Of a stretch of 64,000 bases of DNA, positions 5,417-58,038 are shown piece by piece; positions within the stretch are counted from its first letter, which is position 1; each line of letters opens with the position of its first letter. The stretch covers positions 12,993 through 76,992 of the forward strand of contig DFKQ01000060.1 in NCBI GenBank assembly GCA_002373875.1, read 5' to 3'. Both the position numbers and the translations under genes were made by a program. A model generated the notes under the pieces. The model saw only the letters and a program-made list of their open reading frames with translations, was not told the DNA's origin and did not search any database. The stretch comes from Lachnospiraceae bacterium UBA3641. GTDB taxonomy: Bacteria; Bacillota; Clostridia; Lachnospirales; Lachnospiraceae.

Positions 5417-6853
5417 CTAAGTCAAATGCAGCCGTTTTCTGATATAATCCGCAAGCAGCCTGACATCCCTTCTGTTAATTACCGCAAACAGAGTCAGGGT
5501 CACGGCCGCGACCGAATATCTCATTACGATCATCTTCCTTCCGTCCCTGTAGAAGCAGCACATGGCAATACCTGCCGCCATACACACCCCCATTGCGGCA
5601 AACATGTAGGAATTGGCGTACACCCTTTCCTTAATAACATATGTAACTGCGATGTAATGAAAGAGCATGAGCAGGAGGTAACTTGCAAGCGTGGTATAGG
5701 CCGCAGCCACATAACCGTATCTGGGGATCATTACGGCATTCATTATGGTGTTGGCTATCGCTGCCATAACGGATGCTACAGCGATTATCGGTGTCCGTTT
5801 GAAGAAGAGTTCAATGTTAACGTAATTGGTATAGAAATACTGGGCCAGGGTTCCCAGCGCCACCGGAGGGATCACCCACTTCGCCACCCAATAATCTCTG
5901 GCCCTCGGAGCAAGAAGCATAAGGGCTTCGGGGGCTGCCGTTATAAAGCCGAGGGATAAGAAGCAACCCAAAAGGACCAGCTTTTTCTGAAGCTGTCTGA
6001 TCCTGTCACGGTTACCCGATGCCAGCTGGTCATTGAGCCAGGGAAGCCAGGCCTGACCTATCGCATTTGTAAATATTGCAAGCAGGGTTGAAATGGAGTA
6101 ACCGTAAATATACAGGCCGGCGTCCGCATCCGAGCACATATTCTTGATCATGATCCTGTCGATCTGGGCAAGTACCACGAGAGCCAGCGCATGAGGGATC
6201 ATCGGAAGGCCAATCCTTAAGGCATATCTCCAGTACTCCCGTTTGTAAAAGACCTTACCCTTTTTCAGTATGTTTATATAAAAACATATGCCCATAAGAA
6301 ATGTGGGAAGGATAGTACCCAGGATCTTGCCGATATATCTTTTATCATTGAAAAGATACATAAGTGTAATGGACAGTGCCACGGTTCCCACACAGGTTAT
6401 TACGGATATGGCTATGTTTTCCCTGTATTTATACTCGAACCTGCATTTCTCCTGCATGTACTGAACCGACGGATAGATGACAAGATAAGCAAAGAGAGCC
6501 ATCACAAGGGGGACCTCATACTTTATAATACCCGATATCTGCTCCCTGAAGACGGTCACGGTGATAAGCACACAAAAAGCGAAGGAGCTTGAGAGTCCCT
6601 GCATTGCGGACATATATTCATCAAACTTCTCCTTAAAATCTATCTTGGCCCTGCCTACAGAATAAACAACGCACAGGCAGGTTATTATATTGAACACTTC
6701 AACATATGAATTAAAGGTATTGGCGCGGCCGTAATCACCGGTCGTGAGCATTGCGGTATAGATCGGACTCGTAATTATGGCAACCGCTCTTATGGCTATG
6801 CTTGACAGGGTATACCAGATACCGCTCTTCAACACCAGATTCTTCTCGGACAT
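5417..6853 (-). CDS. wzx: Wzx-type oligosaccharide flippase (MOP superfamily)
   Basis: 478 aa with about 12-14 predicted TM helices. The N-terminus (LKSGIWYTLSSIAIRAVAIITSPIYTAMLTTGDYG) is typical of polysaccharide flippases, and the gene sits in a glycan locus. Confidence 0.85.
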   Translation of the reverse strand: MSEKNLVLKSGIWYTLSSIAIRAVAIITSPIYTAMLTTGDYGRANTFNSYVEVFNIITCLCVVYSVGRAKIDFKEKFDEYMSAMQGLSSSFAFCVLITVTVFREQISGIIKYEVPLVMALFAYLVIYPSVQYMQEKCRFEYKYRENIAISVITCVGTVALSITLMYLFNDKRYIGKILGTILPTFLMGICFYINILKKGKVFYKREYWRYALRIGLPMIPHALALVVLAQIDRIMIKNMCSDADAGLYIYGYSISTLLAIFTNAIGQAWLPWLNDQLASGNRDRIRQLQKKLVLLGCFLSLGFITAAPEALMLLAPRARDYWVAKWVIPPVALGTLAQYFYTNYVNIELFFKRTPIIAVASVMAAIANTIMNAVMIPRYGYVAAAYTTLASYLLLMLFHYIAVTYVIKERVYANSYMFAAMGVCMAAGIAMCCFYRDGRKMIVMRYSVAAVTLTLFAVINRRDVRLLADYIRKRLHLT

Positions 6854-6893
6854 TTATATAATTCTTTACCTTATATTCACTAAAATGCTATAC

Positions 6894-6928
6894 TATAGCA
6901 AACGAAATAAACAATTTCGTTCATTTTA
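6894..6928. promoter_or_regulatory. Palindrome TATAGCAAACGAAAT-N5-ATTTCGTTCATTTTA in the divergent wzx / moxR-like promoter region
   Basis: Read directly. The core arm AACGAAAT/ATTTCGTT is perfect. About 30 of 35 positions match a second copy at 34882-34916. It overlaps candidate promoters: plus strand TAAACA-17-TATAAC, and a minus-strand extended -10 TGTTATAAT at 6929-6937. Confidence 0.35.
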
Positions 6929-6967
6929 ATTATAACATAAACCGTTAAAGGACGAAAGATAAACGAC

Positions 6968-13344: not shown

Positions 13345-13363
13345 ATTGTCTGTTGCATATATA

Positions 13364-13515
13364 TAATCCGCTTAGCGTCATACATTTCATCCGAACCGTC
13401 AGAGTACCGGAAAATAACTCGAATCCATTCTCGTTTTTTTCCTCTCCCCTCCATCCGGTCGGGGAGCACTCTTCCTCTCGGCTAAAATGTATGCCGCTTC
13501 GCTCATTTACAATTC
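13364..13515 (-). repeat. Structured intergenic repeat, copy A (short form); homologous to 50960-51203
   Basis: The reverse complement aligns with element B. Shared blocks are AGCGAAGCGGCAT.CATTT, GAGAGGAA.AGTGCTCCCCGACCGG, AAAAAAA.CGAGAATGGATTCGAGTT.TTTTCCGGTACT.TGA and GTATGACGC..AGCG. The terminal arms are inverted (CATACATTT/AAATGTATG). It is sense to the flanking genes. Confidence 0.5.
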
Positions 13516-13523
13516 AAAATGAA

Positions 13524-15233
13524 TTATGGGAGTTTCTTACTCCACCTGGCGTATCCTGCCTCGTAAAACCGCATGAGTTCACCAATCTGGGAAACGAACT
13601 TCTCATCGCGTTCCTCTTCGTGAGCCAGTATCTTCTCCGCCTTAGCCATGAGATAGAAGAGATCTATCTCGAAACCGACATCCTTTATTGTCTTAAGGTA
13701 GGCTGCGCAGGAATGGATGTTATCTATATCCCCGAAGTCCCTGATGAGGGCCGGAAGTTCTTCATAGCTGTGTACCTTGGTTATGCCGTCGATAAGCTCG
13801 AAGGGAACATCACCGAAGATGATCGACTTCCTTCCCAGAAGGGCTTCCTCATAGGCCGTTGTCCCCACTATGGTCACAACCCCTCTGGCGTTTATGATCC
13901 AGGGCTTGGGATCATGGTAATGGTTGACCTGCACAAGGCGTACATTGTGAAGCTGACGGACCTTCTTATAGAAGTCAACGCTCCTCTCACCAAGCATGGC
14001 CTGATGTTCCTTAACGTAGAGCCACCATCCCACCGGGAGTGACTTAGACACGGCTTCTATAAGGCTTAATTCATCCACATAGTAGGATGCCTTAACGAAT
14101 ACTGTCGACTCCGGTATAAGGTGCAGGGGCATGTATACGTAATTCTCACCCTCGAGGGGAGCTTCGAACAGCTTATTCTTCCCCATGAACTTACGCCTTA
14201 GGGTCATTACCTGCCAGTAGTGCTTAATATAGGGAAGGCTTGGGGCATACAGAAGCCTGTTGGTCTTCTTTATCTTATGGTTGCCCTTGCTTATATCCAT
14301 GTCGAAAAAGTAATGGAACTTGCCCCTCATGACCCGCAGTATCCAGATGATCGAATCCCTCTCATACTGAGAAGTCACTGTACCTGCAAATTCCTTATTC
14401 ATTATTGTGGATTTACTTCGGTAATCGTAGATATAATCGTATTCCTCTTTCAACGCTTCGGAACTTAGCTTCAGGTTTTCATTATACTGCTTCACCACAT
14501 ATTCGTCGATACCTATGGTATTTTGGAAGGTCGGATACTTATAATAGCCGAACTTACTGTACTCAACCGTTATATAAGGCACATTCTTCGAATAAGCCAC
14601 CTCGTTTATTATGGTTCTCTGCAGTTCCGCATTGTCAAAATCAAGTATCATGTCGGGCTTGAATTCCTCGAAGATACCAAGTATCTTCTTATAATTCAGC
14701 TCAAGCCAGAGCATGTTCTCATCAAAGTTGGTTACCGACCAGTAGTATCTGAAATGATAGTGCCTGGTATTCTCCTGCGAACACATAAGCTGCATGTTAA
14801 GGTTCTTAAAATGCGAGTAGTCCTTCTCTATCATCTCAAGATATTCCATATCTGCTATTGGTTTACGTTCATCACGCCTTGATAAAACCTTCTTATCCGG
14901 CTGGTATATCTTATTGAAGAGCTGGACCTGTCCCTTCTTCTTATATCCCGCCTCGTCAAGCCTTCTTGTGTATTCCTCGCATATGTCCCTTACATCGTAC
15001 AGTTTTATTCCGGGAAGTTCTTCCTTGAACCTGTAGTAGGTGTTCACGTTGTAGTAGCACTTATTGTAGCTGCACTCCGTGGACATTATAAAGAAGCAGG
15101 CAACATCATTGTCTTCCTTAAGCCTCTCGGCTATAAACCACAGGGGCTGGGAATAGGTCTCCCTGCACACAAAAAGAACTCTTTTATTCTTTATTCTTGT
15201 ATCTGTATCTTTCTCCTCGAAATTATGAGCCAT
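13524..15233 (-). CDS. Capsule_synth (KpsS/KpsC-like) family protein; candidate CMP-ulosonic-acid-dependent glycosyltransferase
   Basis: 569 aa. YVYMPLHLIPESTV and LYVKEHQAM resemble the PLQ..D.Q and K.HP motifs of KpsS/KpsC-type capsule enzymes. It sits directly upstream of the NeuB-like gene. The assignment rests on motif resemblance only. Confidence 0.4.
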   Translation of the reverse strand: MAHNFEEKDTDTRIKNKRVLFVCRETYSQPLWFIAERLKEDNDVACFFIMSTECSYNKCYYNVNTYYRFKEELPGIKLYDVRDICEEYTRRLDEAGYKKKGQVQLFNKIYQPDKKVLSRRDERKPIADMEYLEMIEKDYSHFKNLNMQLMCSQENTRHYHFRYYWSVTNFDENMLWLELNYKKILGIFEEFKPDMILDFDNAELQRTIINEVAYSKNVPYITVEYSKFGYYKYPTFQNTIGIDEYVVKQYNENLKLSSEALKEEYDYIYDYRSKSTIMNKEFAGTVTSQYERDSIIWILRVMRGKFHYFFDMDISKGNHKIKKTNRLLYAPSLPYIKHYWQVMTLRRKFMGKNKLFEAPLEGENYVYMPLHLIPESTVFVKASYYVDELSLIEAVSKSLPVGWWLYVKEHQAMLGERSVDFYKKVRQLHNVRLVQVNHYHDPKPWIINARGVVTIVGTTAYEEALLGRKSIIFGDVPFELIDGITKVHSYEELPALIRDFGDIDNIHSCAAYLKTIKDVGFEIDLFYLMAKAEKILAHEEERDEKFVSQIGELMRFYEAGYARWSKKLP

Positions 15234-15385
15234 CTTATCCTGCTTACTCTTTCTCTTGCTGGTTTTTTCTCCCTGAAGTTATAGATTATCTTATCCTGCT
15301 TACTCTTTCTCTTGCTGTATTTTTCTCCCTGAAGTTATAGATTATCTTATCCTGCTTCACCTTTCTCCTTCAAGATATAGGTTTT
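15234..15385. repeat. 56-bp tandem direct repeat (2 near-identical copies plus 1 degenerate copy) forming the 5' leader of the 13524-15233 gene
   Basis: The copies start at 15234, 15290 and 15346. Copies 1 and 2 differ at 2 of 56 positions. The proximal copy supplies the AGGA RBS and abuts the ATG at 15233. Confidence 0.85.
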
Positions 15386-19549: not shown

Positions 19550-19593
19550 ATATCATCCACTATCCCGATACTGAACAGACAAATAAATATGCA

Positions 19594-19636
19594 AAAGCCG
19601 GCAATCCATTATAATTTACCATAGATTGCCGGCTTT
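19594..19636 (-). terminator. Intrinsic terminator-like hairpin separating locus II from locus I
   Basis: Perfect 13-bp stem AAAGCCGGCAATC / GATTGCCGGCTTT with a 17-nt loop. On the minus strand it is followed by TGCATATTTATTTG. The A/T flanks suggest it could act in both directions. Confidence 0.5.
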
Positions 19637-19931
19637 ATCAAATACGGTGATTTTTAATATACTTGACTATGACTTTCCGAATGCAAACAAGGAAATGCAT
19701 TCGGAAATCCCGCCTTCTGCGGGACACACCTCTGCTTTTGGCAGAGCCTGGTCGAATACGAATCCCGAAGTTCTGAAACTGATGGGAACCAAATCAGGAA
19801 ACTATTCCGTATATAGGGACAGGCTTATAAAACGCGGAGTTATCCTCGCAAAACAAGGCTATATCCGTCTCAATCCGCCATTTTTCGCAGAATATATCAA
19901 GAATTACGGAATGAGCGAAATGTTCTATTAA
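19626..19931 (+). pseudogene. Probable 3' remnant of an AAA-ATPase gene (C-terminal winged-helix-like tail only)
   Basis: The 101-aa ORF has no convincing RBS. Only the tail (SGNYSVYRDRLIKRGVILAKQGYIRLNPPFFAEYIKNY) resembles C-termini of ORC/Cdc6-like ATP-binding proteins as I recall them. The 5' part is occupied by perfect hairpins (for example TTTCCGAATGCA..TGCATTCGGAAA at 19674-19707). Confidence 0.3.
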
Positions 19932-34871: not shown

Positions 34872-34881
34872 TAAAGATTAT

Positions 34882-34916
34882 TATAGTAAACGAAATTACT
34901 TATTTCGTTTACTATA
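34882..34916. promoter_or_regulatory. Perfect palindrome TATAGTAAACGAAAT-N5-ATTTCGTTTACTATA (candidate operator or terminator hairpin)
   Basis: The 15-bp arms are perfectly complementary. It overlaps the stop codon of 34912-36105 and sits just upstream of the -35 of the next promoter. Near-copy of 6894-6928. Confidence 0.4.
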
Positions 34917-36105
34917 GAAATGAACCGAGGAACCGTCCCCCGGTTTTAAGATCCTCCTGTTTTACTCCACAGATCAATATGAGAAAGATAAGCGAAAATG
35001 GCGGAACGATAATATAATTTTCCATAAATGCCGGCAGCATCATTGCAAATACGCCTGCCATCGCGCACTTGTTAAGGTGTGATGAACAACCGGCCTCATG
35101 GCACTCCAGAAAACGTTTTATCAAGAACACTATCGTTACCGCAAAAACAGCGACGCCATGAACTATAAGTATATCAAGGAGACCGTTATGAACTTCAAAC
35201 AGGCCGTTAAGCCAGTCAAGCCGCATCTCATAGGATGATCCGATACCCGTGACCGGTTGTTTCATAAATGCTCCCCAAAGCTCCGACCATATCTCCTCCC
35301 TTCCCGAGATTATATCCTTGTAAAAGATCCTTATACGGAATGTATCCTTCATATACCCCAGCCACACATAAAGGAGGCTGAACAGCACCGACCCTATTGT
35401 GGTAGCAAGAGTTACAAGAAGATAAAATATCTTACTCTTCCATATCTTTACCGGAATAAGCATAAGAAAGGCAAAAGCCAGCAATCCCAAGAGCGCGCAC
35501 CGGCTTCTGTACCAGGCGATGATGTTATAGCCCCAGGCAAAGAAAAAAAGCGTAACAAGGATAAGCCATCTTGCCCCCTGTTTACCCTTTACGTTACAGA
35601 GATGATCCCTCAGATACTCAAGGATATATATTGTGAAAAAGAATCCGCTGATAAGGATCAGGCCACCATAGTTGGTATTGTATCCCTTGAAATAGCCCTT
35701 GACATCCACGGTCCAGTAGATAAAGAAAAAGCCGATATAGCAGGCCGATATGATAAACCATTTCCTGCTCAAACGGATCTTGTTTGCCAGATAAAGGATA
35801 AGGAGAAAGTCAGCTGCCGTCAGAAAAGCGCCCTTACCGGATCCCAGCAGGAAAAGATTTATCAGGGCAACAGCATCCGCACCCGCCATAAGAAGAAAGG
35901 CAGGATCCTTTAGCATCTCCCTTATATCAACATAGCAAAAGAGTGCGATAAGAAGGCCTGCTGTTGCGATAAGCGTCCCATATGGAGCCACCGCCTGATA
36001 CCAGGTATAGAAATGCCATTCAAGTGTCGTAAGCACAAACACCGATACAAGTATCGCCGCATTCCCGGCCGCTGTTCTCCTGTCACTCTTCCTTGTTATT
36101 TCCAT
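34912..36105 (-). CDS. O-antigen-ligase/Wzy_C-family membrane protein
   Basis: 397 aa and multi-pass. The loop motif FYKDIISGREEIWSELWGAFMKQPVTGIGSSY is typical of Wzy_C proteins. Paralogue of 37629-38930. Confidence 0.7.
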   Translation of the reverse strand: MEITRKSDRRTAAGNAAILVSVFVLTTLEWHFYTWYQAVAPYGTLIATAGLLIALFCYVDIREMLKDPAFLLMAGADAVALINLFLLGSGKGAFLTAADFLLILYLANKIRLSRKWFIISACYIGFFFIYWTVDVKGYFKGYNTNYGGLILISGFFFTIYILEYLRDHLCNVKGKQGARWLILVTLFFFAWGYNIIAWYRSRCALLGLLAFAFLMLIPVKIWKSKIFYLLVTLATTIGSVLFSLLYVWLGYMKDTFRIRIFYKDIISGREEIWSELWGAFMKQPVTGIGSSYEMRLDWLNGLFEVHNGLLDILIVHGVAVFAVTIVFLIKRFLECHEAGCSSHLNKCAMAGVFAMMLPAFMENYIIVPPFSLIFLILICGVKQEDLKTGGRFLGSFL

Positions 36106-44629: not shown

Positions 44630-44824
44630 TAAAGGTAACATCATAAGGGCTCCTCCCATAAATGGGTCCCTCCTCATGAACAGTCGTAAAATCCATCCTG
44701 AATTATGCTTCGCATAATGGATTTTACTAAGGTAACATCATAAGGACTCCTCCCATAAATGGGCCCCTCCTCATGAACAGTCGTAAAATCCATCCTGAAT
44801 TATGCTTCGCATAATGGATTTTAC
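44630..44824 (-). repeat. Tandem duplication (2 x ~98 bp) of a two-hairpin intergenic element
   Basis: Copies 44630-44727 and 44728-44824 differ by 2 substitutions and 1 indel. On the minus strand each unit is GTAAAATCCA-TTATGCGAAGCATAA-..-TGGATTTTAC followed by TCATGAGGAGGG.CCCATTTATGGGAGGAG.CCTTATGA. Confidence 0.85.
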
Positions 44825-45930
44825 TTCGGAAAGGTGTAGAATACAAAATACCCTTTAACATACAATACATATATCATCGAAAATACAATGCCCGGAATAA
44901 CACAGGCCGCATATTTAAACAGCATTCCCCACCTCTTCTTCCTTACGATCATGGGAAGAAAGAGGACCGTAAGCTCCACCGGAAGGAGCATGTTGGCCGA
45001 TGAGGATATTGTTGCGGCTCCAAAGCACACAAGAAAAGTCATGAGCCAGGGCCTTACCGTAAGCGTATCATCATTCATGCTCATGAAAAGAAGGAATATA
45101 GCGGCCACCGCCAGATTACCCACTATAGCCTTGCCCTCATATGTCCTTGTCATAAGAAACAGGGATGATGTATAAATGGTGATAAAGGTCAGGTTTATTA
45201 TAAACATAAAAGCCATCATGACCAATACAGCCGCCTCTTTGTTTATCTTCCTGCCTTCGTTCTCTTCATCTACATAGGCAAACAGCTTGCCCGCGATCAT
45301 ATAGTAGACGATATTTGTGAGTATTATCACGGTTGTTGCCATTACCGACTTGGTCCAGATAAGGGCCGGAATATGTGTCGCCTGACACACAACAGCATCC
45401 TGGATCTGATAGGTGGCAAAGAAATACCTCATCTCGTAATGATCCTGCCAGGCTCCCGTGAAGGGGTCATATACATTCATCATATTTGTTTCAACGCTCG
45501 TAGCCACATTCGCAACATAGTAGGCCGCATCAAGAGTAAAATTATATGTAGCGGATACAAGAAATACCTGGGCAGCCACAAGCAGGACAATAAAAAGGCT
45601 GATAAGCGGGTGACTCTTAACATGATCTGCTGCTTCCTTTACAGCTTTAAGCCATGATCTGCCATTCATAACAAAAGATACCGCCACAACAATAACGGCA
45701 AAGGGTACCCATATCCCTGTCAGCATGGACAGGGGCCTGTAATACTTCATGGGACCTACACAGACAATGAAAAAAAGAAAATAATAGAAGAAGAACCCCA
45801 CTATCAGGGACAGAAGAAGCGGACATGTTTCCTTACTGCCCCCGGCCTTACGTGTTATAAATGATCCGAAGCTTAAATACAATATGAAATTGCAGATAAC
45901 CGAAAGGGCGATCAAAATCGCATTGCTCAT
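44821..45930 (-). CDS. Polytopic membrane protein of unknown function
   Basis: 369 aa with about 10 TM helices and no motif I can assign. It sits in a glycan locus. Confidence 0.6.
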   Translation of the reverse strand: MSNAILIALSVICNFILYLSFGSFITRKAGGSKETCPLLLSLIVGFFFYYFLFFIVCVGPMKYYRPLSMLTGIWVPFAVIVVAVSFVMNGRSWLKAVKEAADHVKSHPLISLFIVLLVAAQVFLVSATYNFTLDAAYYVANVATSVETNMMNVYDPFTGAWQDHYEMRYFFATYQIQDAVVCQATHIPALIWTKSVMATTVIILTNIVYYMIAGKLFAYVDEENEGRKINKEAAVLVMMAFMFIINLTFITIYTSSLFLMTRTYEGKAIVGNLAVAAIFLLFMSMNDDTLTVRPWLMTFLVCFGAATISSSANMLLPVELTVLFLPMIVRKKRWGMLFKYAACVIPGIVFSMIYVLYVKGYFVFYTFPK

Positions 45931-49927: not shown

Positions 49928-50800
49928 TTATAAATAATTTCCTATGTATTCCGATATGGCTTTTTCCCAGTCCGCATACATATGGTCCGTTGTAAGCCTG
50001 AACATATAATTCTCAAGAACCGAAAACCTGGGACGGTCAGCCGACTGTGGATTCATTTCCTTATACTGCTCACTGGTAACCGGTATAACCTCGGTTTTTT
50101 TACCTGCCAGAGAGAATATCTTCTTTGTAAAGTCGGCCCAGCTGCACTGCCCTTCACAGGTTCCGTGGAAAAGACCGTAATTCTCAGTAGGGAGGAGATA
50201 GGCAACCGCCTTGGCAAGTTCTGCCGTACTTGTGGGCGACCCCAGCTGATCGTTTACCACCGTGATCTTATCGTGGCTCTCCGACAGGCGAAGCATTGTC
50301 TTAACAAAGTTCTTACCATCACCGTAGAGCCATGCCGTCCTTATTATAAAGAAATCCTTCGCAAACTGCTTAACGAAATTCTCACCTGCAAGCTTGGTAA
50401 TGCCGTACATTGCCTTGGGACCCACGGGATCGAATTCCGTATACGGAACATTGCCGTCACCCGCAAAGACATAATCGGTTGAGATATGCATCATTTTGGC
50501 ACCCGTCTCGGTTGCCGCGATGCTTAAGTTCCTGGGGCCGATCGCATTGATCTTATATGCGGCATCCTTCTGGACCTCGCATGCATCAACCGCTGTATGG
50601 GCCGCACAGTTTATTACGGCGTATGGCCTTACTTCCTTAAAAAGGTCAAGACAGGAATCAAGATCCGTTATGTCAAGATCCCTTACGCCTTCAACCTTAA
50701 AATCGGTGTTTACAAGCTCGTATTCCTTATTTCCTTCATAGAGCTTATTTATCTCCCGACCCAGCTGGCCGTTGCAGCCGGTGATTATTATCTTCTTCAT
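49928..50800 (-). CDS. rfbD: dTDP-4-dehydrorhamnose reductase
   Basis: The start was moved to the ATG at 50800 (GGAG RBS; MKKIIITGCNGQLGREI). INCAAHTAVD..STDYVF..YGITKLAGE..RTAWLYG..DQ.GSPT is the RmlD pattern. The 50-codon extension in the ORF track runs into repeat element B's flank. Confidence 0.9.
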   Translation of the reverse strand: MKKIIITGCNGQLGREINKLYEGNKEYELVNTDFKVEGVRDLDITDLDSCLDLFKEVRPYAVINCAAHTAVDACEVQKDAAYKINAIGPRNLSIAATETGAKMMHISTDYVFAGDGNVPYTEFDPVGPKAMYGITKLAGENFVKQFAKDFFIIRTAWLYGDGKNFVKTMLRLSESHDKITVVNDQLGSPTSTAELAKAVAYLLPTENYGLFHGTCEGQCSWADFTKKIFSLAGKKTEVIPVTSEQYKEMNPQSADRPRFSVLENYMFRLTTDHMYADWEKAISEYIGNYL

Positions 50801-50959
50801 ATCCTGCTCCGTATGTAACACACTTTTGCGTACTTTCAAAATAAACCAACATATAGTATACTGAATTATGTGCTTTTTTTCAACTGTTTGTAAGTCCGCT
50901 TCAACCACGGAATATTTTACCGCGAACGGCCACCACTCCGGTAAGCTCACTGATTTGAA

Positions 50960-51203
50960 TATATAGTAAGCGAAGCGGCATTCATTTCGGACGAGAGGAA
51001 CAGTGCTCCCCGACCGGGTGGTAGTTCGTCATGAGGGGTACCGCGAAGCGGTGGAGTCCTTATGACAGTAGGAGAGCAAAAAAAGCGAGAATGGATTCGA
51101 GTTCTTTTCCGGTACTGTGATTTTGGGCATGAGGTGGCTGCGAAGCAGACGGAGTCCTGATGCCATTAGGTTCGTCCAAAATCGTATGACGCGCAGCGAA
51201 TTA
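50960..51203 (+). repeat. Structured intergenic repeat, copy B (long form with two nested hairpin modules), in the 5' leader of 51213-52820
   Basis: It aligns with the reverse complement of 13364-13515. It carries two inserted 37-nt hairpins, H1 at 51029-51065 (TCATGAGGGGTACCGCGAAGCGGTGGAGTCCTTATGA) and H2 at 51127-51163 (GCATGAGGTGGCTGCGAAGCAGACGGAGTCCTGATGC). Confidence 0.5.
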
Positions 51204-51212
51204 AGGTAAGAA

Positions 51213-52820
51213 ATGAAAAATATAAAATTCTGCATAATTACAATATTGGCGGTGATACATCAGGCAGTAACCGGTATCGCAGATCTTAAGATATTCACCG
51301 TTCCCATGAGCGCGAACCCTGTCGATTACGTGACATGTAAAATATCTGCCCTTATCGTAAGCTGGGCTTTTTTCTACATGCTCTGGCAGCTCTTTATGGA
51401 AAAGGACGGACTTATCAAAGGCCGGAAGGATGAGCGCAATACCATCTCCCGTGTGGTTATAAAGGCTCTTCCTTATCTTTTTATAATGATCCCTGTATGT
51501 ATATTTAAGCTTCGCGGCGGATACTTAAGCAATGACGAGACACTGATATATGAGAATGCCGTAACGCTTACTCATTACACATGGTTCTATTATATAACCA
51601 CTTACTACTACATCATAAGCCTGATGCTTATTCCACATATGTACGCCCCGATATTTGTCAAGCTCATTATTGAGTATCTGACCATCGGTTATGTTGTCCT
51701 CCGTTCTTCCGACTATTTTACTGCAAGGCAGTCCGGATTCTTTATAAAGAAACCTGTTAAGATAGGCTATGGCGCTCTGATAATGCTCCTCTTTGTGCTC
51801 TATCCCGTTATCGCTTATACAACAAGCGCCCACAGGCTGCCGATATATTTTCTTCTTTATCTCCTGCTCATAACCATGCTTCTTTTTGACAGGCTTGAGC
51901 AGGCAGCCCTTACCATACCGAGACTGCTGACGATAATAATACTGGGCTGTATCCTTACCCAGTGGCGTACGGAAGGGATCTATCTTCTGGTGCTCATCCC
52001 CGTCTTGGTACTTTTATGCTATGAAAATATCCAGCTTACCGGTAAGAGGACACTCAGGCTTAAGGATAAAAAGGTATTTGTTATATCTCTTATCATCTAC
52101 CTGATATGCCAGTACGTTATCTCCATCCCCCAGAACGGACTGATGGCAAAAGAGCTCACAGCTGCGGCAGATGACAGGATGAAGCCCTTCTATGCCTATA
52201 CGATCACAAACATGTACCGCAACGGCCTTGATAAAAATAAAAATGCCGACGACCTTGCGATCGTCGACAAATATATATCACTTGAATCCCTTGATGCCAT
52301 AAACGATTACTACGGAGACATTAATTATGAGGATGTACTGATCCTTTACCAGCCCGGTTTTGTCGGTGTCAGGGAGGAAGCCGGTGTGACCGAGTATTAT
52401 GACTTTGTCCTGGCTCTTAAGAGGATATTTAAGAACAATCCCCGGATATTTCTCCGCACCAGGATAGGAGCCTTCATCTATGCGGCCCTGCCATACCATA
52501 TAAGCTATACGGGTACCGATTTAAGGTCCCTCATCAGCCTGGCTTTCAGCGTTGTAAAGACCGTTTCCTACAACCTCTTCATCCCCCTTGTGATACTGCT
52601 CTTCTTATGCCTGTATTCGCTCGCAAGGGGAAGATGGTTTACCTTCTTCACAACAAGCGGTCTGCTGGCCCACTGGTTCATCGTCTTTATACTGGCACCG
52701 GCATCGTATTTTAAATATTATTTCCCGGTGTACATTACCGCATATCTTTACCTGTTTTTATTGATCATCGCACATCTTTACAACAGGAAACATTCCGTCA
52801 AGATAAAGATCCTGCAATAA
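51213..52820 (+). CDS. Polytopic membrane protein of unknown function
   Basis: 535 aa with more than 12 TM helices and one ~110-aa soluble loop. It is an isolated plus-strand gene, convergent with the S8 protease gene across a 10-bp gap. Confidence 0.6.
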   Translation: MKNIKFCIITILAVIHQAVTGIADLKIFTVPMSANPVDYVTCKISALIVSWAFFYMLWQLFMEKDGLIKGRKDERNTISRVVIKALPYLFIMIPVCIFKLRGGYLSNDETLIYENAVTLTHYTWFYYITTYYYIISLMLIPHMYAPIFVKLIIEYLTIGYVVLRSSDYFTARQSGFFIKKPVKIGYGALIMLLFVLYPVIAYTTSAHRLPIYFLLYLLLITMLLFDRLEQAALTIPRLLTIIILGCILTQWRTEGIYLLVLIPVLVLLCYENIQLTGKRTLRLKDKKVFVISLIIYLICQYVISIPQNGLMAKELTAAADDRMKPFYAYTITNMYRNGLDKNKNADDLAIVDKYISLESLDAINDYYGDINYEDVLILYQPGFVGVREEAGVTEYYDFVLALKRIFKNNPRIFLRTRIGAFIYAALPYHISYTGTDLRSLISLAFSVVKTVSYNLFIPLVILLFLCLYSLARGRWFTFFTTSGLLAHWFIVFILAPASYFKYYFPVYITAYLYLFLLIIAHLYNRKHSVKIKILQ

Positions 52821-57992: not shown

Positions 57993-58038
57993 TCATAAGG
58001 AATCCACCACTTGCTTCGCTTCGTGGTACCCCTTATGA
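57993..58038 (-). repeat. Hairpin module H3 of the intergenic repeat family
   Basis: Minus strand: TCATAAGGGGTACCACGAAGCGAAGCAAGTGGTGGATTCCTTATGA. It has the same outer stem and GCGAAGC tip as H1 and H2. The flank GATGCCATAG matches the H2 flank GATGCCATTAG. It abuts the stop of 58039-60642. Confidence 0.45.

Follow-up and report, generated by a model that had tools for sequence, protein, structure and literature searches.

The bcr1 element (Group A bcr repeats) of the Bacillus cereus group is, by analogy, the closest described counterpart of the intergenic element that we analyzed in this study. It is a repeat of ~155 bp with 5-bp flanking direct repeats, its location is not conserved between strains, and it is transcribed into a cruciform RNA that is kept via compensatory changes (PMC3184786). 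The element in our window, by which we mean the whole 64-kb stretch of DNA under analysis, resembles bcr1 in its length of ~150 to 155 bp, its Firmicute host, a fold that resembles a cruciform and contains two internal stem-loops, a strain-variable location, short flanking direct repeats, candidate compensatory changes, and the lack of coding capacity (PMC3184786). In contrast, bcr1 reaches tens of copies per genome and has a defined 5-bp direct repeat, whereas the window contains two copies in 64 kb and their direct repeat is ambiguous at 3 to 6 nt (CGC or AAGCGG). No sequence similarity between the two was established, and transcription of our element would follow from its position.

The ERIC/IRU elements of the Enterobacteriaceae are similar to ours as imperfect palindromes of ~127 bp that lie in transcribed intergenic regions, are present or absent at orthologous sites, and occur in either orientation (PMC3184786). 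These elements belong to another phylum, have no sequence similarity to the element described here, and have TA flanks that we did not see. Longer ERIC variants have reportedly arisen from extra sequence at internal sites, and one of our two copies, copy B, is also lengthened by internal insertions. A third comparison is offered by the Correia elements (CREE/NEMIS) of Neisseria, which are MITEs of 100 to 157 bp with long terminal inverted repeats that form mRNA hairpins, often lie 5' of genes, and are polymorphic between strains (PMC3184786). Correia elements differ in having conserved 26-bp terminal inverted repeats (TIRs), a TA target duplication, an IHF site, promoters, and hundreds of copies, whereas the arms are the most variable part of our element and no internal promoter was predicted.

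Structured RNAs of glycan operons provide a different kind of precedent. Like copy A, the eps-associated RNA (EAR; epsC in Rfam) and similar leader or intra-operon RNAs are structured RNA candidates between genes of an exopolysaccharide operon. Unlike EAR, the element lacks an Rfam match at E ≤ 10 beyond the chance matches given below, has just one to two genes downstream of each copy, is missing from orthologous operons, and is not conserved in orientation.

Two homologous intergenic elements border a surface-glycan gene region

The window sequence is identical to a 142.5-kb ENA metagenome contig, and its relatives are uncultured rumen or gut Lachnospiraceae MAGs. Nearly all of its ORFs encode surface-glycan functions, including three priming transferases, flippases, Wzy, many glycosyltransferases, nucleotide-sugar enzymes, LytR-CpsA-Psr, and sortase. 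A transposase or recombinase Pfam domain was found in 0 of the ~50 ORFs in these 64 kb. Copies A and B occupy intergenic spacers that border this large surface-polysaccharide gene region (Table 1). Copy A fills a 179-nt same-strand spacer between the stop of a gene for a 569-aa protein (13524) and the start of a neuB-like gene (13332/13344), and copy B is located in the 412-nt spacer that separates an rmlD-like gene (true start at 50800) from a divergently oriented gene for a 535-aa membrane protein (51213).

The 569-aa protein (13524-15233, minus strand) is always encoded directly 5' of neuB, and the 535-aa polytopic membrane protein (51213-52820, plus strand) is always encoded divergently from rmlD. 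Each has hundreds of homologs and is well conserved in Lachnospiraceae. Neither protein family matched Pfam or NCBIfam, and both are likely uncharacterized glycan-assembly proteins. Three tandem 56-nt repeats (15203-15370; 75 to 80% identical) cover the beginning of the 569-aa gene, namely its start codon and first codons, and continue upstream, where the units resemble degenerate copies of the 5' end of this gene.

The original prediction had described two homologous intergenic elements, and the reverse complement of 13361-13508 (copy A) indeed matches 50964-51206 (copy B). Alignment of the reverse complement of 13345-13523 with 50940-51215 by MAFFT and blastn produced one block of 53 nt at 89% identity and another of 50 nt at 92% identity (each E ~1e-14), which are also the two longest inverted repeats (I1 and I2) recovered by a repeat search of the window. 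The proposed blocks were thus correct in place, but the homology extends ~25 nt past the proposed 5' end and ~15 nt past the proposed 3' end. The block-wise match to copy B likewise held, but copy B is ~95 nt longer than copy A because of two inserted hairpins of ~47 nt each. Neither a four-sequence nhmmer profile nor a covariance model detected further copies in the window.

The copies have a common architecture in which a long terminal stem of ~22 pairs (P1) is followed by a 7- to 8-bp stem (P2) and then by hairpins P3 (CTCCCC-GACCGGRTGG-GGGGAG) and P4, the latter an A/U stem around an invariant loop, CGAGAATGGATTCGAGTT. Terminal inverted repeats are present in that the P1 arms of 21 to 22 nt are complementary, though imperfectly, in every copy. 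The inverted termini proposed for copy A, CATACATTT and AAATGTATG, are located at 13485-13493 and 13379-13387, and the proposed coordinates of the internal stem were exact. Within its 7 bp, one pair is G:C in copy A and C:G in copy B, and the G-U pair is invariant, as described.

Table 1. Positions of the two element copies, their structural parts, and the inverted segment in the window
Feature	Position	Strand	Sequence or partner	Support
Copy A core, ~148 nt	13361..13508	-		R1 covariance model 176.9 bits; MFE -58.7 to -62 kcal/mol, z = -6.3 (for the -62 kcal/mol fold)
Copy A larger repeated unit (core plus flanks homologous to B locus)	13352..13521	-	5' TCATTTTGAATTGTAAATGAGCGAA; 3' GATTATATATATGC	Alignments
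Copy A P1 5' arm	13477..13497	-	GCGGCATACATTTTAGCCGAG	
Copy A P1 3' arm	13375..13395	-	TTCGGATGAAATGTATGACGC	
Copy A P2 5' strand	13466..13472	-	AGAGTGC; partner GTACTCT, 13401-13407	
Copy A P3 hairpin	13444..13466	-	CTCCCCGACCGGATGGAGGGGAG	
Copy A P4 hairpin	13409..13442	-	GGAAAAAAACGAGAATGGATTCGAGTTATTTTCC; 18-nt loop CGAGAATGGATTCGAGTT, invariant in all copies	
Copy B (core plus two nested hairpin inserts)	50964..51206	+		R1 127.4 bits; alignment
Copy B P1 5' arm	50975..50995	+	GCGGCATTCATTTCGGACGAG; partner TTCGTCCAAAATCGTATGACGC, 51171-51192	
Copy B P2 5' strand	51000..51006	+	ACAGTGC; partner GTACTGT, 51112-51118	
Nested insert 1, in copy B P3 loop	51022..51068	+	Small hairpin family, CATGAGG...GGAGTCCTTATG	Not in L077
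Nested insert 2, between P2 and P1 3' strands of copy B	51121..51168	+	Same family, CATGAGG...GGAGTCCTTATG	Not in L077
Segment inverted relative to L077 and L078 (core, ~30 nt of spacer, and 33-nt block 50909-50941)	50900..51197			blastn

Presence and absence of the element in related loci

At the A locus, we found the element in the window and in the related loci L001 (96% identical), L083, and L085. In L084 (NeuB 90% identical), the 569-aa gene and neuB overlap by 11 nt so that there is neither a spacer nor an element, and in L093 (569-aa protein 91% identical), the genes are separated by a 12-nt spacer, again without an element. The larger repeated unit of copy A has no counterpart at either of these orthologous sites. 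Furthermore, the SKKLP* C terminus of the window 569-aa protein is encoded in inserted DNA and was found in 0 of the 59 homologs inspected. Based on the empty sites in L084 and L093 and on this C terminus, we consider the element at the A locus to be a derived insertion, which evidently separated two tightly joined genes and placed a copy of the GGAGG ribosome-binding site (RBS) before neuB. The copy A core is flanked by AAGCGG...AAGCGG, and the A/B homology continues past these repeats. The insertion in L085 has a distinct 3' junction, and the empty sites in L084 and L093 imply different junctions. A 5-bp target duplication, TGGAG, that emerged from comparison with L084 was ruled out after the closer empty site in L093 gave another junction.

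At the B locus, three contigs (L076, L077, and L078) encode an identical 535-aa ortholog that is 91% identical to the window protein. L077 contains the element without the two small hairpins. L078 is 99.96 to 100% identical to L077 over 7.7 kb, except that a 128-nt core is missing. This 128-nt indel corresponds to the core and is bounded by a 3-nt direct repeat, CGC, past which the homology between A and B continues. The L076 contig ends exactly at the edge of the element. In the more distant L082, L079, L080, and L088-L092, the orthologous spacers are much shorter and contain no core. We left L081 (535-aa protein 96% identical) out of the B comparison because it is possibly chimeric, with an upstream region that is unrelated and AT-rich. 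Between window copy B and the L077 copy, the core is ~94% identical, and the neighboring spacer is far more diverged.

The orientation of the element varies as well. In blastn alignments, window 50907-51198 aligns in reverse to L077 2223-2418, with both flanks collinear. The element in L077 is inverted together with ~60 nt of spacer, and its sense strand therefore faces rmlD and is antisense to the 535-aa gene. For the spacer segment, the window and L079 have one orientation and L077, L078, and L080 have the other, which does not follow the protein phylogeny. As an observation on the locus as a whole, the rmlD/535-aa spacer (50888-51212; L077-L082 and L088-L092) is hypervariable: its length beyond a constant promoter block (ending in ...TTTTTCAAC) ranges from ~50 to 330 nt, and it contains nested indels and an inverted segment of ~300 nt.

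Taken together, the alignments show that at both loci the element is inserted where close relatives lack it, and that near-identical strains differ by gain or loss of its palindromic core at a 3-nt direct repeat. As judged from the same alignments, the element takes either orientation and accepts a nested second hairpin repeat.

Small hairpins and other repeats in the window

The inserts nested in copy B belong to a family of small hairpins of ~35 to 45 nt with five copies in the window (51030-51064 and 51128-51162 on the plus strand; 57994-58037, 44739-44775, and 44642-44678 on the minus strand). Family members have a conserved outer stem (CATGAGG/CCTTATG), a conserved 3' internal-loop sequence (GGAGTCC), and an inner stem that varies in sequence between copies with pairing kept. 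Two copies are those nested in copy B, one follows the 867-aa gene at a site that is conserved in L076-L078, and two reside in a perfect-register tandem duplication of a 97-nt unit (44632-44825; 98% identical) between two DUF6077-region genes. Each 97-nt unit contains one small hairpin and one terminator-like hairpin, ATTATGCGAAGCATAAT. On inspection, we rejected both a possible K-turn within the small hairpins and an ORF of 33 codons spanning insert 1 to insert 2 as misfits to the consensus or coincidental.

The GCGAAGC heptamer, a very stable GNA-loop mini-hairpin, occurs 14 times in the whole window (5.0 ± 2.3 expected), mostly in intergenic hairpins that include the 5' end of copies A and B and both nested inserts. 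We also observed a further dispersed intergenic repeat of 41 nt (83% complementary; hairpin AAACGAAAT...ATTTCGTTT), with one copy (6893-6933) upstream of a flippase gene (5417-6853) and the other (34877-34917) just downstream of a Wzy-like gene (34912-36105). In a 394-nt gap between a GT1 gene and a UDP-GlcNAc 2-epimerase gene, a near-perfect 28-nt palindrome with a 1-nt gap (19587-19643; ATATGCAAAAGCCGGCAATCC...) may be a bidirectional terminator or an operator.

Searches for related elements

Consistent with the original prediction, which had not recognized any RNA family, a search of Rfam 15 over the window returned 0 matches at gathering score, and matches at E ≤ 10 around both copies were limited to chance miRNA and snoRNA matches. 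Known IS and MITE sequences, as far as they could be searched, did not match the element, and blastn against plasmid and phage collections also gave no match; no parent IS or transposase with shared termini was found among the window ORFs. A remnant of a retron, a bridge RNA, an omega RNA, or a group II intron was also rejected, as no RT, IS110, TnpB, or intron ORF was found nearby and Rfam gave no match.

An exact-pattern scan of GTDB representatives recovered only the ortholog of copy A, in a ruminal Lachnospiraceae MAG. The corresponding scan of JGI metagenomes recovered one contig identical to copy B, one partial copy, and chance seeds, and two viral-contig scans gave chance 15/16-mers only. 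Neither nhmmer nor the covariance model detected another copy, diverged or not, in ~220 kb of related loci. The partial copy, at the end of contig L069 (positions 1-40), is a homolog of the P4/P2 region (32/36 nt). It immediately precedes an unannotated 152-aa ORF, to which it is antisense and which is followed by a HAD hydrolase gene. This partial copy hints that the family may also occur at non-glycan loci in another organism. In addition, four independent assemblies (L083, L085, L076, and L087) break off within the element or its nested hairpins or at their edges; such contig ends are typical of repeats or polymorphic sites in assembly and may hint at repetition. Since we found two copies in 64 kb and the scans yielded this species and one partial match, the high copy number typical of MITEs is not shown for this element.

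A probable low-copy dispersed insertion repeat

Because the element is present or absent at two unrelated sites, even between strains that are >99.9% identical, varies in orientation, and carries a nested repeat, we favor reading it as a small dispersed insertion repeat. On balance, it is probably a low-copy dispersed palindromic insertion repeat of an uncultured rumen Lachnospiraceae bacterium that represents a new family in the MITE/bcr1/ERIC-like class. The original prediction had considered a simple DNA repeat to fit less well than an RNA element, and the comparative data reverse that preference.

In the proposed model, a unit of ~170 nt would have been copied into two spacers, the 569-aa/neuB junction and the rmlD/535-aa divergent spacer, with a core of ~128 to 150 nt predicted to form a near-perfect long hairpin with two internal stem-loops. 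Spread and loss would occur by DNA-level mechanisms, either transposition in trans by some enzyme or microhomology-mediated copying, and loss could alternatively result from hairpin-stimulated replication slippage. Slippage across hairpins between short direct repeats is outlined as a principle in PMC4134008, and by analogy, the core may simply have been lost by hairpin-stimulated slippage between the 3-nt repeats. The ends of the mobile unit are undefined because the A/B homology passes the indel boundaries.

Copy A lies inside a same-strand operon, and neither a promoter nor a terminator was predicted around it; we therefore infer that copy A is co-transcribed with the operon. The co-transcribed element would then fold into a cruciform-like structure (~-58 kcal/mol). 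In this model, the A-locus hairpin would most plausibly act as at most a passive mRNA processing or stability element, with neuB translation kept by the duplicated GGAGG RBS, and the compensatory changes would represent upkeep of the hairpin itself at the level of RNA or single-stranded DNA and not gene-specific regulation.

Several observations speak against an insertion repeat. There is no transposase or recombinase in the window and no clean target-site duplication. Between copy A and the L077 B copy, the P1 arms are more divergent (10/52) than the interior (5/81; p = 0.03), which is the opposite of what is expected of transposase-bound terminal repeats; a comparison of two B orthologs gave the opposite trend, with more divergence in the interior than in the P1 arms. 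Moreover, the sense strand is the stabler strand, and the nested inserts, located in a loop and at a junction, spare all stems, both of which fit selection on an RNA fold.

Fold, covariation, and the case for a cis-acting RNA

These last observations lead to the alternative that the element is a functional cis-acting structured RNA module for surface-glycan genes, such as a leader, a processing or stabilizer element, or an antitermination-type element. A duplication may have brought this module to a second glycan gene. We consider this alternative, which includes the leader or riboregulator of the original prediction, to be unlikely but to have some support. A branched secondary structure is shared by both copies as predicted, and its three-way-junction fold is common to four distinct sequences, with 95.4% of cells paired versus 35 to 43% in slid controls. 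The sense fold is better than the antisense fold by 12 to 18 kcal/mol for A, L001, and B. In addition, the stems contain three compensatory pairs and two G-U pairs that do not vary, neither the P3 loop nor the 18-nt P4 loop differs between copies, and both copy B inserts avoid the stems. The higher conservation of the B core relative to the adjacent spacer also counts for a cis-acting RNA, as do the orientation of both window copies in sense to the next gene and the placement of copy A inside an operon, where it would be transcribed. The structure of the element is real and partly maintained.

Statistically supported covariation, however, cannot be claimed. Of the compensatory changes, one is in P2 and two are in P1, but all three of these double-sided changes fall on the single branch between the A and B lineages, on which three other P1 pairs are broken. 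In a shuffle control, the observed number of double-change pairs was reached in 439 of 500 runs. Substitutions are equally frequent in paired (11/98) and unpaired (4/35) positions, and a higher conservation of loops than of stems is thus not supported. The G-U pairing was predicted to be kept in the sense orientation only; the P2 G-U pair is invariant, but one U-G pair of copy A is a C.A in the B lineage, which would be a G-U pair on the other strand, and the strand asymmetry is therefore not absolute.

The comparative data further argue against an RNA tied to its downstream gene. Orthologous sites are empty at both loci (L084 and L093 for A; L078 and L082 for B), including in the >99.9% identical strain, and neither position nor orientation upstream of the 535-aa gene is conserved, the element being absent or inverted in L078, L082, L079, L080, L088-L092, and L077. 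A sense orientation relative to the downstream gene is true of both window copies but not of the L077 copy; there the flipped sense strand is antisense to the 535-aa gene and is found upstream of the rmlD promoter that was predicted. Such a lack of fixed orientation was among the outcomes that the original prediction had named as refuting it. We found no expression platform at either copy, neither a terminator nor an anti-SD or RBS-sequestering helix, and no Rfam relative. No terminator-like site was predicted near either copy, and the GGAGG RBS of neuB is at least 25 nt outside the copy A fold and is unpaired in the MFE structure. As a separate matter, a sigma-70 promoter within the element was considered, with TTGAAT...GCATAC conserved in A and B, but was rejected for its poor -10 box and for not being flagged by the promoter scan.

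Inversion of the rmlD/535-aa spacer and other alternatives

The flipped segment raises the question of whether the B locus is an inverton, with the arms of the element (TATGACGCGCAGCG and its complement) serving as the recombination sites, an arrangement that we hold to be improbable. To the same low degree, we would credit the associated proposal that each flip turns a small segment with a promoter from the rmlD glycan operon to the 535-aa gene or back. Invertons are reportedly enriched at polysaccharide loci. The ~300-nt inversion between the window and L077/L078 with collinear flanks fits this scheme, as does an orientation distribution that is not phylogenetic. In L079, a 19-nt, 84% inverted repeat flanks 71 nt, and one of its arms is the 3' end of the element. 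However, the left inverted repeat is degenerate in the window, and at the boundaries of the flipped segment, no inverted repeat of at least 10 nt was found in the window or L078. No invertase or recombinase gene lies within the 64 kb, and all five contigs that encode the exact window 535-aa protein have one arrangement (two shown and three flagged as similar). Furthermore, the good promoter-like sites of the rmlD/535-aa spacer are found only in the constant part beside rmlD, outside the flipped segment, and copy A has no orientation variants.

We give a similarly low probability to a segmental duplication in which an intergenic hairpin was copied just once, through either ectopic recombination or template switching. 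Such an event would involve neither mobility nor function and would explain the losses as palindrome-stimulated deletions. The A/B homology does exceed the indel-defined core and enters sequence that is kept by core-less B loci, only two loci are documented in this species, and the indel is bounded by just a 3-nt direct repeat, as in the slippage across hairpins that PMC4134008 outlines. A single duplication is less easily reconciled with the partial homolog in the unrelated gene context of L069, with an A insertion in several lineages (the window, L001, and L085 with its distinct 3' junction), or with a fold retained via compensatory changes.

Least probable of all is a portable structured-RNA module with a fold under selection beside two surface-glycan units and a rmlD/535-aa segment invertible via the arms of the element itself; if true, flipping would place the same RNA on the sense strand of one or the other of two divergent glycan operons, and such a union of inverton and cis-RNA would have no described precedent.

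Implications

The dispersed insertion repeat that we favor carries a caution for RNA-motif discovery, in that a paralogous pair with compensatory changes and G-U asymmetry can mimic a riboregulator until orthologous empty sites are checked. Small structured repeats are barely catalogued in Lachnospiraceae and other uncultured rumen Firmicutes. The element described here marks a hypervariable, promoter-proximal spacer that is partly inverted between relatives and breaks metagenome assemblies at glycan loci. It also illustrates how surface-polysaccharide spacers are remodeled, with overlapping genes split, a protein C terminus rewritten, and an RBS duplicated.
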